Positions 51,748-55,615 of a stretch of DNA of 55,615 nucleotides are shown in pieces. Position 1 is the stretch's first letter. Every line of letters starts with the position of its first letter. The notes below the pieces were generated by a model. That model saw nothing but the letters and a program-made list of their open reading frames with translations, had not been told where the DNA came from and ran no database searches. The position numbers were made by a program, and so were the translations under genes. This DNA comes from a virus (lineage: Duplodnaviria; Caudoviricetes): positions 1-55,615 of IMG/VR virus record IMGVR_UViG_3300028396_000009; one strand, given 5' to 3'.

Positions 51748-53055
51748 CTATCTTGCAAGGCCTGCTAACGCATTAAGTGTATCATCATCATCATCTTCAA
51801 GGTCAACATCATCAGCCTGCTCAATGGATAGTGTAGGATAATCGATTCTCATAGCTTGAGTCATACCTCTAGCACCGTACCTGTTCTTCATCATACCCAA
51901 TCTAATAATCTCCATCTCACGATCCTCCTCATTCTGATAAATAGACACAATGCAGTCAGCAGTTGCAGCCAGGCCTATAGATTCCGATATAGTAGCTAGC
52001 TCGGGGTTATCTTGATCAAATCCAGATCGATTTAACTGAGTAGCTGATATAATAGGACACTCAAATACATATGACATAGCACGTACTTGCTCAGTTACAT
52101 GCTTAATACGTTCATATGAATTACTACCTACAGATGAGTTTAATAAGTTAAGATAGTCAATTACAATAGCATCTAATTTAATTCCTTTATCCTCAAACTT
52201 CTTTATATATCCTTTAAGTTGATTAGGTGTAATAGTTGATGGTGGAAACTCTTTAATAAACATCTTACCCTTCTCCTGATTAATCGTATGCTTAATAGTA
52301 GGACCATTATGACGTAACTCCTTCATAGGTATTTTAGTAACATTCGAACAAATACGCTGAGCATATAGCAGTTCAGCCATCTCTAACGTTACAAGTAACA
52401 CATTTTTACCTTGACTAGCAATATTATGAGCGATATTACCTAGAAATATAGACTTACCGATATTTGTTTCACCAGCAAAAACATACAAAGACTTACCATT
52501 CTCTAAGAAACCACCACCGAGATGTTCATCTAACCACTCCCACTTTGAGGGTATAAATCTCTGCTCTGAATTTAGGTCATCAATAAGTAAGTCAATCTCA
52601 TCATACATGTTATAACCTAAATCAGTTACTAGACTTATATTACAAGACTCCTCAAACTTCTGCAGTACATCAGATGTATCAACTTCACCCTTTGAAACAT
52701 CTTCAGCTACATTTAGCATAGTATGATATACAGCCTTCTCTTTAAGAAACCTTTCTGTGTTATCATATAACTCATCTTTATCTAGATTCTTATCTATATT
52801 ATTAAATGACTGAACTAACTCCTTAAATGAGCTTTTCTGATCATCAGTAACAAGGTAAGTCTTTATTTCGGTTATAGTAGGTAACTTATTTCTCTTCTCA
52901 GAGAAGTCCTTAATAATATCAAAGACGCTCGCAATGGCCTTACTCTTAAAGTACTCTGGCTTAACACTATCAGCTATAGCTGCTAAATAACCACTATCAG
53001 TAAGGGCCTTATATATTAGTATATTTTCATACTCGTCTAGATTAATTAAGCTCAC
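51748..53055 (-). CDS. gp41: DnaB-like replicative helicase
   Basis: Walker A 'AGETNIGKS', 'TLEM', 'IKEFPP', Walker B 'IVIDYLNL', 'SATQLNRSG', 'SESIGL', 'KNRYG'. Confidence 0.96.
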   Translation of the reverse strand: MSLINLDEYENILIYKALTDSGYLAAIADSVKPEYFKSKAIASVFDIIKDFSEKRNKLPTITEIKTYLVTDDQKSSFKELVQSFNNIDKNLDKDELYDNTERFLKEKAVYHTMLNVAEDVSKGEVDTSDVLQKFEESCNISLVTDLGYNMYDEIDLLIDDLNSEQRFIPSKWEWLDEHLGGGFLENGKSLYVFAGETNIGKSIFLGNIAHNIASQGKNVLLVTLEMAELLYAQRICSNVTKIPMKELRHNGPTIKHTINQEKGKMFIKEFPPSTITPNQLKGYIKKFEDKGIKLDAIVIDYLNLLNSSVGSNSYERIKHVTEQVRAMSYVFECPIISATQLNRSGFDQDNPELATISESIGLAATADCIVSIYQNEEDREMEIIRLGMMKNRYGARGMTQAMRIDYPTLSIEQADDVDLEDDDDDTLNALAGLAR

Positions 53056-53445: not shown

Positions 53446-54111
53446 TTATTGGTCAGTTGCTTTATATTTGTTTAAAAACCACTCTTGACCCTTTTCAAAT
53501 TCAGGTGTAAACTCTCTAAGTCCAGGTGATGCATGTGTTATGAGAATATCACTAACACCTACTTTAAACCCAGCTTTATGAGCTGCCATGCTATAGTCAA
53601 TATCGTAAAAATGAAATTTAGCAGGGCACTTTTCATCAAATCGCACTTTTTCAAACACTTCTTTTTTGATAGCCATAAACACACCATCAATCATAACTAC
53701 CTGTTGCGGGTATGGTCCGAAAGCAGTCATGCCTTTTGCATTACCATTTAAATGAGATACAGCACCGTGTAAGTTACCACTTCCAAAACCACCACCCATT
53801 AGATGCCATAGTGCTGGTTTTTCTAGCTTACACTGTGTTGCACCTGCTACACCAAATATATCAAACTGATCAAAGTTTTCTAATAGTTTTGCTTCAGTAA
53901 CATTCTCTAATATAACATCATCATGACATAACACAAGATAGTCAACACCTTCTTTTTTACAGAAGTCGATTGCCTTGTTATAAGCCTTTGCAATAGATAA
54001 CCTATTACGTTCTTTAAAGTAAATCTCTACACCGTCTACATACCTACCTGATTTATAGAGTAAACAGTTCTTCTTCTTACCTTTTGTTAGTGAAAAATAA
54101 AATACCTTCAT
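53446..54111 (-). CDS. GT-A fold glycosyltransferase (GT2-like)
   Basis: 'IAKAYNKAI', 'LCHDDV', 'IDGVFMA', 'FDE...FHFYDIDYS', 'HASPG'. Confidence 0.85.
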   Translation of the reverse strand: MKVFYFSLTKGKKKNCLLYKSGRYVDGVEIYFKERNRLSIAKAYNKAIDFCKKEGVDYLVLCHDDVILENVTEAKLLENFDQFDIFGVAGATQCKLEKPALWHLMGGGFGSGNLHGAVSHLNGNAKGMTAFGPYPQQVVMIDGVFMAIKKEVFEKVRFDEKCPAKFHFYDIDYSMAAHKAGFKVGVSDILITHASPGLREFTPEFEKGQEWFLNKYKATDQ

Positions 54112-54779
54112 ATGAATAAAAATGGTGACTTAACTTCAAAGCTTCCTACCTTATTAAACCTCTTAGTTTCAGCATTTAGCCTTAGAATAGTTCCTTCAGG
54201 TACTAGCTTGTAACCTTTACCAGGCATGGTTGAATAGTCTCCTTTACTATTATAATGTAAGATGGAACCATTTCTAGCTAAATATACCTCGTTAGTATCA
54301 CAATCAATAATTGATAGGGCAAATGTACCTTCCAACATTTCCAGCACTTGCTTAATATAATAAACCGGTCTTGGCTTCTTATAATTACAGTTTTCCATCA
54401 TATGTTGTAACAATTCAGGTATAATTGCTGTATCAACAGGGTTATTCCAACTCGGTCTACACCATTGCTCTAGTTCAGCAGCATTTGTTAATACTCCGTT
54501 ATGAAATACCATCCATGATAAACTATCAAACGGATGTGAGGTGTCCCACGCCCAGTCTCTCTTTGCGGATGTAGGAGCCTGTACATGTCCAGTAAAGTAC
54601 TTCGTATTAAAGTGATCAATCTTAACCTTATCAAAGTTAATATCACCTTCAACCTTCATAATTAGCTGATCGTCTGTTGTAAGACTTACAGCACTACTTG
54701 CAAAGTTACCCCTCTCTTTATTTGCATCATATAACACTTCAAAGGTAGATATATCTGCTGAACCAAATATTGCGCAAAT
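54108..54779 (-). CDS. Class II (Ntn) glutamine amidotransferase domain protein, probable ATT start
   Basis: Extending the track ORF 14 codons in frame gives ATT-C-A-I-F-G-S...ERG...GHVQAPT...HPF...HNGVLTN...VDT...LEGTFA...ARNGS, the GATase-2 motif series with N-terminal Cys. Confidence 0.85.
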   Translation of the reverse strand: MCAIFGSADISTFEVLYDANKERGNFASSAVSLTTDDQLIMKVEGDINFDKVKIDHFNTKYFTGHVQAPTSAKRDWAWDTSHPFDSLSWMVFHNGVLTNAAELEQWCRPSWNNPVDTAIIPELLQHMMENCNYKKPRPVYYIKQVLEMLEGTFALSIIDCDTNEVYLARNGSILHYNSKGDYSTMPGKGYKLVPEGTILRLNAETKRFNKVGSFEVKSPFLFI

Positions 54780-54786
54780 AACGTGT

Positions 54787-54793
54787 CTCCTTT
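54787..54793 (-). promoter_or_regulatory. Shine-Dalgarno AAAGGAG for the ATT-initiated amidotransferase
   Basis: Minus strand reads AAAGGAG-ACACGTT-ATT-TGC (7-nt spacer). Confidence 0.7.
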
Positions 54794-54801
54794 CTGTTTT
54801 G

Positions 54802-54809
54802 ATTAAATA
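54802..54809 (+). promoter_or_regulatory. T4-late-type promoter (ATTAAATA) for the endonuclease
   Basis: 5 nt before ATG 54815. Confidence 0.65.
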
Positions 54810-54814
54810 CTTTC

Positions 54815-55495
54815 ATGTTCTATTATATTTACAAAATAACTAATGTAGTCAATAATATATTTTATATTGGTTCTCATAAAACTCAAGATCTAAATGATGG
54901 TTATTTTGGATCAGGCATATACTTAAAAAGAGCTATTAAAAAACACGGTAAAGAGAACTTTAGGAAGGAGATTGTACTATATTGTAACTCTGAGGTTGAA
55001 ATGAGGGAGAAAGAGACGGAGTATCTATTAGGTGTGAGAAATGAAAATGTTTATAATTTAAAGTTTTGTGCTCTAGGTGGTAATACAAGAGCTACATATA
55101 CAAAAAAAGAAAAGAAACAGTATATACAAAAGTTAATTGATAATCCGGATTCACCTATAGGTAAAAAAGGAACAGATGCGTTTAATTACGGAACATCTCT
55201 TAGTAAGCAAACAAAAAAGAAGCAAAGCAATAGTCATAAGAAAAGGTGGGAGAATATTAAGACGAGTCCGGAGTACAGTGATTATAGGAAGGCATTAAAA
55301 GAGCATGCACTTGGTAATATTGATAAAATGGCTGCAAAGAGGAGAAAGAAGATTCATTTGAAAGATAAACAGACAGGAAAAACTTTTAAGTTTTGTTCAC
55401 TTACTCAATGTATTAAAGAGACTGGGTTAAGCACATATATGGTACACAGACTTAAAAAGGGATATACAGGTCATCCCAAATATATCTTGTTATAA
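54815..55495 (+). CDS. Free-standing GIY-YIG homing endonuclease (Seg-like)
   Basis: 'YIYKITN..N..FYIGSH', 'YFGSG', 'KHGKENF.KE', 'YNL...GG'; basic NUMOD/HTH-like C-terminus; opposite orientation to its neighbours. Confidence 0.9.
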   Translation: MFYYIYKITNVVNNIFYIGSHKTQDLNDGYFGSGIYLKRAIKKHGKENFRKEIVLYCNSEVEMREKETEYLLGVRNENVYNLKFCALGGNTRATYTKKEKKQYIQKLIDNPDSPIGKKGTDAFNYGTSLSKQTKKKQSNSHKKRWENIKTSPEYSDYRKALKEHALGNIDKMAAKRRKKIHLKDKQTGKTFKFCSLTQCIKETGLSTYMVHRLKKGYTGHPKYILL

Positions 55496-55504
55496 ATTAC
55501 TTAT

Positions 55505-55615
55505 CTACAGTTTTGAATTATTCTCTTGTTCCTTTTTAGCTTTTTGCCTTTCAAGTAAAGCAAGAGACTCTTCTTCGTGACCATAATATAGTCTACGATC
55601 TCGAGGAATACGCCA
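55505..55615 (-). CDS. 3' end of an unidentified gene (partial)
   Basis: Minus strand is open from the window end: WRIPRDRRLYYGHEEESLALLERQKAKKEQENNSKL*. Confidence 0.5.
   Translation of the reverse strand, partial: WRIPRDRRLYYGHEEESLALLERQKAKKEQENNSKL

Follow-up and report, generated by a model that had tools for sequence, protein, structure and literature searches.

At which codon is the glutamine amidotransferase gene close to the end of IMG/VR virus record IMGVR_UViG_3300028396_000009 (Duplodnaviria; Caudoviricetes) initiated, and where does its unusual start come from? The record comprises 55,615 nucleotides (nt), and this whole stretch is called the window in the following. A first-pass annotation of the window had proposed that the gene starts at an ATT behind a strong Shine-Dalgarno (SD) sequence and that no canonical start is present up to the in-frame TGA. 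When we inspected the minus strand, we confirmed these letters. The SD AAAGGAG (54793-54787), the 7-nt spacer ACACGTT and the ATT (54779-54777) are followed by TGC GCA ATA TTT GGT. The in-frame TGA (54815-54813) is located 12 codons above the ATT, and none of the 11 in-frame codons between them is ATG, GTG or TTG; behind this stop codon, the translation reads KYLIKTERRHV-ICAIFGS. The first canonical start is the GTG at 54737, which yields a product of 209 amino acids (aa), whereas reading from the ATT gives 223 residues. The residues lost from the GTG (1-14) include Cys2, and the earlier statement that this start, which is used in the gene track, deletes the catalytic nucleophile was thus borne out. 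We consider it likely (probability of about 0.78) that the amidotransferase starts at AUU and that this AUU start belongs to a mobile homing endonuclease cassette.

To evaluate whether the ATT might reflect an assembly error, as the annotation had recommended, we compared four seawater runs in detail as Logan contigs (X4, X11, X18, X19; the latter two are RNA libraries). The window stretch or part of it was contained in 20 of the 23 seawater runs listed. X4 and X11 are DNA runs that are not flagged as source of the record. A contig of X4 (record 31) spans 54763-55519 including the ATT without any difference from the window, and a contig of X11 (record 5) covers 54702-55014 with an unchanged ATT and differences only at 54732 and 54762. 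The same ATT was found in three other assemblies (L002, L168, L175). Taken together, these data indicate that the ATT is real DNA and the only plausible start of the amidotransferase, at which initiation would occur on AUU. SD strength was expressed as predicted duplex energy with a generic 9-nt anti-SD motif, and for the window a value of -8.7 kcal/mol was obtained. The impression that no SD of like strength is present elsewhere in the window holds roughly, but 3 of 49 open reading frames (ORFs; crude set) carried a first-start SD at or below -8 kcal/mol (-8.4 to -9.0).

When we compared alleles, we found that the ATT is more than a single point change: it forms the last codon of a 713-nt block. 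In contigs of all four runs that lack this block, position 54776 is joined to 55490 with 2 letters in between, or 54773 to 55490 with 5 letters, and on the minus strand this junction reads ...TTTATA-ATG-TGC (or TGT)-GCA without SD. Contigs with and without the block coexist in each run at comparable contig depth. A corresponding pair was detected among the IMG/VR contigs, where L002 carries 713 nt in place of the TG of L003 and where the flanks are identical at 496 of 531 and 735 of 758 positions. Since the ATT and the SD are located inside a block whose absence restores an ATG without SD, the start appears to have been rebuilt by the cassette. This was the second of two ideas put forward in the annotation, and the comparison of homologues it had suggested gave a consistent answer: ATG without SD where the block is lacking, SD plus ATT where it is present. 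The annotation had regarded the ATT as a feature of this particular gene. It is, however, conserved across a family of mobile cassettes and persists as a scar after decay of the endonuclease.

The block harbors a free-standing gene that runs antisense to both neighbours, and its product matched PHROG 314 (homing endonuclease) over residues 1-216 with an E-value of 3.7e-36. The corresponding Pfam scores were below the cut-offs (GIY-YIG, 19.4 bits with a cut-off of 22.6; SegE_GIY-YIG, 19.8 bits with a cut-off of 25). The last sense codon and the stop codon of the endonuclease sit in the flanking target sequence, and the stop is TAA in the window and TAG in L002. We rejected a riboswitch or another known RNA in the ATT leaders, as an Rfam scan of five related ATT loci (the window was not among them) yielded no match at E-values up to 1. 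Predicted secondary structures of the leaders were no better than those of shuffled sequences (z from -0.2 to +1.4). A group I intron with the start codon on its upstream exon was also rejected: the endonuclease is antisense, there was no Rfam intron match and the alleles differ by a simple block. Promoter-like sites around the cassette were about as frequent as expected (5 vs 6.7), the same was true for terminator-like hairpins (1 vs 0.9), and neither is counted as evidence. This hairpin with its T run (55459-55477, minus strand) lies just inside the cassette, antisense to the 3' end of the endonuclease gene. It could block read-through from the upstream helix-hairpin-helix gene, the number of such sites being as in shuffled sequences.

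The product read from the ATT is predicted to be a class-II (N-terminal nucleophile, Ntn) amidotransferase that needs Cys2 for glutamine hydrolysis and ammonia transfer, which agrees with the initial assignment. Two Pfam families were matched above the cut-off (GATase_6, 31.8 bits with a cut-off of 27; GATase_7, 31.2 bits with a cut-off of 25). When a profile of 20 relatives was searched against the PDB, we retrieved GFAT (1.5e-9), PurF (8e-7) and also GlmS chains, and profile position 1 was aligned to position 1 of the PurF chain. In the AF2 model (pLDDT 90), which shows the four-layer Ntn fold, the first strand is formed by residues 3-7, and Foldseek comparison with the glutaminase domains of GlmS and PurF gave TMq values of 0.72-0.75 (1xff_A, 0.74; 1ecb_A, 0.75) at E-values of about 1e-11 to 1e-12. 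M1, C2, A3, G6, H93, N94, G95 and D116 are invariant among the aligned relatives, with Cys2 kept in 20 of 20. We found 252 protein relatives and inspected 23 of them. Here, 17 were full-length and all of these start with MCA[IV]FG (MCAIFG in 16), and the remaining six are 183-209 aa long with an internal Met start, as a gene caller gives for a non-canonical start. Among the 252 relatives, predicted proteins of 183-213 aa with internal Met starts (P0007, P0011, P0019, P0070-P0073, P0081, P0098, P0118) probably stem from additional ATT alleles, or from starts miscalled for another reason, in public gene calls. In phage GenBank records, a near-identity DNA search gave no match and a protein search returned just two Vibrio phage genes with about 30% identity.

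Next to the individual alleles, we surveyed the gene family with a degenerate pattern of the N-terminus that allowed any start codon. It recovered at least 119 IMG/VR stretches and missed the CGIFG-type branch of L180. After further loci had been added, the set comprised 99 distinct complete loci, of which 93 start with ATG and six with ATT. Exhaustive pattern scans of IMG/VR detected the ATT start in six stretches and neither CTG, GTG or TTG (0) nor ATA or ATC (0) starts, and a metagenome scan added 11 further stretches with ATT. It can be seen that start codon and SD go together. The 93 ATG loci had a median SD energy of +0.6 kcal/mol with a minimum of -4.6, and none of them was at or below -6. 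In contrast, all nine distinct ATT leaders fell between -8.0 and -12.8 kcal/mol (Mann-Whitney p = 4e-7, with rows that are not independent). The purine block is spaced 6-8 nt from the ATT in six of eight leader types (6-7 nt in five), and in seven of eight no canonical start is able to give the conserved N-terminus, L091 being the exception. The position relative to the upstream gene also differed. For the ATG form, 81 of 88 loci start -1 to 44 nt (most of them 14-29 nt) behind a helix-hairpin-helix gene on the same strand, and for this reason leaderless mRNA was rejected for these alleles. In the ATT loci, the corresponding gap amounts to 36-728 nt.

The cassette also appears to move. Between the window and L002, the region 55478-54759 is about 98% identical, whereas the flanks share only 62-83%, and identity declines stepwise into the amidotransferase gene (55/60, 50/60, 43/60) and on the opposite side (49/60, 37/60). 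The two endonucleases share 97.8% identity, the amidotransferases 92% at a saturated synonymous divergence (dS) of 1.6, and for the amidotransferases of L002 and the ATG locus L003 identity reaches 99%. The distribution of the ATT label on a tree of the 99 rows requires six changes, at least four of which are forced by starred branches. Such a pattern is the signature of homing with co-conversion, for which cleavage by the endonuclease is predicted, and repeated precise loss would be the alternative.

Diverged and decayed copies were also found. L180 encodes a full antisense endonuclease of 234 aa (47% identity to that of the window), followed by a 66-nt leader and AGGAGG-N8-ATT-TGC-GGA, and the adjacent amidotransferase is just 39% identical to that of the window. 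Reverse-complemented L180 also harbors a second GIY-YIG-like ORF (221 aa; 138-803), which is separated from the cassette gene by about 1.1 kb. In L169, an N-terminal endonuclease remnant of 53 codons (58% identity) ends at a stop codon 32 nt from AGGAGG-N6-ATT. When upstream DNA was compared with the 5' end of the window endonuclease plus leader, L150, L169 and L046 scored 36, 48 and 38, and the maximum among 81 ATG-locus controls was 28. Alignment of L046 with its ATG relative L043, and of L038 with L037, revealed in each case an insertion whose end coincides with the start codon or falls 4 nt short of it. Where the endonuclease decays, SD and ATT apparently remain as a scar. The 83-nt insertion before the ATT of L038-type loci contains an inverted repeat with 7-bp arms and a T run upstream of the SD (L038:1610-1665, plus strand), which may be a hairpin or terminator brought along with the start module. 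In L038, a 2-nt gap relative to related loci shortens the helix-hairpin-helix gene to 97 aa (L038:1200-1493 vs L171:3231-3626). Intact copies (131 aa) are present in L171 and L174, which share the ATT leader of L038.

From these data, the following scenario can be drawn for the AUU start. A putative GIY-YIG endonuclease gene would have inserted in antisense orientation precisely at the amidotransferase start codon, and the leader of the cassette with its strong SD and ATT would replace the native ATG that lacks an SD. After insertion, the amidotransferase would be out of reach from the upstream gene and would be translated from the cassette SD instead. The weak AUU codon should keep its output low, and the overlapping glycosyltransferase gene would follow through coupling. 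Since AUU gives about 1-2% of the AUG output in E. coli reporters (accessible text of 10.1101/063800), strong SD and weak codon together may restore a low native level. The cassette would spread among related phages by homing, co-converting about 60-100 nt of the amidotransferase gene, and later decay of the endonuclease would leave SD and ATT as a functional scar. The total absence of the combinations SD plus ATG and ATT without SD points to a lock between the two features, and the T may in addition make the allele resistant to the endonuclease. A stronger form of this idea is tentative, and we rather doubt it at present. Here, SD plus AUU would constitute an obligate, epistatically locked start module of the cassette family, in which the G-to-T exchange destroys the target (spanning ATG-TGC-GCA) and offsets the strong SD that is required after loss of the native coupling, so that neither feature reverts alone. 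If both mixed combinations were unfit, the lack of an SD in all 93 ATG loci and the survival of the module long after loss of the endonuclease would be accounted for.

Several observations weigh against the proposed AUU start and its origin from the cassette. In each ATT allele (ATT TGY), a UUG arises one base further downstream, in the +1 frame, and could capture many initiations. The purine block of L046 and L091 is separated from the ATT by 11 and 14 nt, respectively, a long distance for an SD, and L091 has an in-frame GTG 5 codons upstream of the ATT. No endonuclease remnant was detected in three of the eight ATT leader types (L038, L170/L172, L091), and their status as scars is one that we infer. 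The genes of this phage seldom carry an SD (3 of 49 ORFs), and the use of the window SD by host ribosomes is suggested by SD conservation only; Bacteroidetes ribosomes ignore SDs (accessible text of PMC7797042). The counted rows are related sequences, so the statistics overstate independence. Both forms are present in the RNA-library runs X18 and X19 as contigs, which carry no start, strand, 5'-end or transcription information.

Of the competing explanations, convergent tuning survives best, although we judge it improbable. It corresponds to the first of the two ideas in the annotation and implies that ATT plus strong SD arose several times and throttles the amidotransferase and the coupled glycosyltransferase, with the endonuclease as mere neighbour. 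The scatter of the ATT label over the tree and the three leader types without detectable remnant fit this idea, as do the low AUU output in E. coli and the attenuation of EbpA that was reported for the ATT start of E. faecalis ebpA (accessible text of PMC4447247). However, an ATT always coincides with a replacement of the upstream DNA up to the start codon, four further lineages carry the endonuclease, complete or as a remnant, at this antisense position as well, and the block is far more alike between phages than its flanks. Moreover, in the IMG/VR scans only ATT was found and never one of the other weak or alternative starts (ATA, ATC, CTG, GTG, TTG).

Initiation elsewhere is less probable still. 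The ribosome might start at the overlapping UUG (A-TTG-C, +1 frame) with re-pairing of the initiator tRNA onto AUU, or at an upstream non-canonical codon followed by autocatalytic removal of a propeptide. Ntn enzymes can process themselves, and the propeptide of B. subtilis PurF is removed autocatalytically. ATT TGY always holds a TTG at an SD spacing of 7-8 nt, and the upstream GTG of L091 points in the same direction. Against this, the +1 frames meet a stop codon after 7-12 codons and lack conservation, the upstream in-frame codons of the window lack a canonical start, and the SD spacing points at the ATT in most leader types.

It is very unlikely that the insertion knocked the gene out, so that a Cys-less product is made from the GTG at 54737 or no product at all and the alleles are heading to decay. 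AUU is a poor start, the track of the gene caller begins at the GTG and this phage uses few SDs. However, the ratio of non-synonymous to synonymous divergence (dN/dS) between ATT alleles was 0.03-0.11, at a dS that is saturated (1.0-1.9), and all 11 complete ATT coding sequences (CDSs) are intact with 220-229 codons. In codons 2-14, which lie upstream of the GTG, only synonymous changes separate the window from L002 (3 synonymous/0 non-synonymous) and L150 from L172 (7/0); the other pairs (ten were compared in all) gave 4/0, 6/3, 4/3, 3/2, 3/0, 3/2, 0/0 and 0/0. This points to strong purifying selection on the ATT alleles, codons 2-14 included, rather than to the relaxed selection of a pseudogene that the annotation had considered, and the comparable depth of ATT and ATG forms within the same runs also argues against a knock-out. 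Finally, a sequencing or assembly error with ATG as true codon has nothing beyond its prior probability in its favour and is refuted because independent contigs carry the identical T, the ATG form occurring exclusively where the 713-nt block is absent.

The positions of all features are summarized in Table 1. The ATG of the glycosyltransferase gene overlaps the TGA of the amidotransferase (ATGA), and because of this overlap its translation is probably coupled. The window derives from a marine phage that is uncultured; its replication genes are of the T4 type (gp32, RNase H, gp41-like helicase), and the helicase shares at most 31% identity with those of cultured phages. In L038 (3079-4380, plus strand), the gp41/DnaB-like helicase contains extra sequence after the ATQLNR motif that starts with CLD... 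and resembles a Hint/intein insertion; the window copy (51748-53055, minus strand) is without this insert. A QueC gene was found a few genes from the amidotransferase-glycosyltransferase pair in L046 (924-1679, plus strand; Pfam QueC, E 9.7e-51) and L006 (68-304, plus strand), and the window ends short of this position. It is conceivable that the stand-alone amidotransferase acts in a 7-deazaguanine pathway for DNA modification. Boxes similar to TATAAATA are present within about 20 nt of many start codons of the window, for example upstream of 3664, 5800, 47541 and 51724. These boxes resemble T4-type late promoters.

Table 1. Features at the amidotransferase locus (positions in the window) and the evidence for each
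Feature	Position	Strand	Evidence
Putative ATT initiation codon	54777..54779	-	No canonical start between TGA and Cys2; T in independent contigs; codons 2-14 conserved
Shine-Dalgarno-like AAAGGAG, 7 nt from ATT	54787..54793	-	Predicted duplex of -8.7 kcal/mol
Mobile block (endonuclease + leader + ATT), 713 nt, in place of TG of ATG	54777..55489	.	Allele junctions; L002 vs L003
Putative GIY-YIG homing endonuclease gene (free-standing, antisense to neighbours; product of 226 aa)	54815..55495	+	PHROG 314; presence/absence polymorphism
35-nt leader, from antisense endonuclease start to ATT	54780..54814	-	Homologous leader in L150, which is without endonuclease
Stand-alone class-II (Ntn) glutamine amidotransferase CDS, 223 codons + stop, read from ATT	54108..54779	-	Pfam, profile search, AF2/Foldseek
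GT2-like glycosyltransferase gene	53446..54111	-	Pfam Glyco_tranf_2_5, E 5.3e-17
Helix-hairpin-helix gene, 3' end, cut by window end	55505..55615	-	L003 homologue matches HHH_3, E 3e-10

If our interpretation holds, the odd start codon becomes a case in which a selfish element rewrites the translation start of a host gene and the gene is kept working, and this would be a further means for homing endonucleases to keep the burden on the host low. Our interpretation would also explain a systematic mis-annotation, in which gene callers shorten ATT alleles to 183-213 aa and the catalytic Cys is lost. As natural pairs that encode the same protein, the alleles with ATG but no SD and those with ATT plus SD offer material on the trade-off between SD strength and start codon in marine phage-host systems that hardly use SDs. 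Should SD and AUU indeed form a locked module, the coexistence of both alleles within a single seawater population would amount to a natural experiment on epistasis between the two.

Free-standing homing endonucleases and non-canonical starts are each already known, and what is particular here is the combination, a genuine, conserved and cassette-borne ATT start. In the open-access literature (without supplements), we found no paper that joins a homing endonuclease with an ATT/AUU start. The accessible part of a review on T4 mobile elements states in general terms that invading endonucleases may disturb the expression of neighbouring genes, and describes Seg and Mob genes as intergenic, with AUG and in one case GUG as the endonucleases' own starts (PMC2988022). 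The Seg proteins, free-standing GIY-YIG enzymes of T4-type phages such as SegA between uvsX and beta-gt, resemble the present system in the location of the endonuclease gene between conserved genes, the presence/absence polymorphism among related phages, the high identity of the element and the gradient of co-converted flanks (PMC2988022, same part). Unlike Seg genes, the endonuclease gene of the window runs antisense to the genes on either side and lies precisely on the start codon of one of them, a codon that it replaces. Its cassette, for which cleavage is predicted, brings an SD plus ATT start module for this neighbour, and the module outlives the endonuclease as a scar.

The amidotransferase shares the fold, the N-terminal Cys and the H-N-G oxyanion motif with the glutaminase domains of GlmS/GFAT, PurF and AsnB, and the Asp of its N-P-V-D-T block aligns to the D-T-E of GFAT. 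Unlike these enzymes, it consists of a 223-aa glutaminase domain alone without fused synthase and is followed by an overlapping GT2-like gene. AUU-initiated genes are represented by E. coli infC and pcnB (accessible text of 10.1101/063800 and PMC7797042). Together with ebpA, and as far as the accessible texts go, these share with our gene an AUU in an otherwise favourable context, an annotated start that was mis-set to a downstream canonical codon and a low expected output. For infC, the likeness does not extend to IF3 feedback, the logic of which is not evident for an amidotransferase. In contrast to all three genes, the AUU of the window is polymorphic with an ATG allele in one population, fully linked to a gained SD and carried by a mobile cassette.

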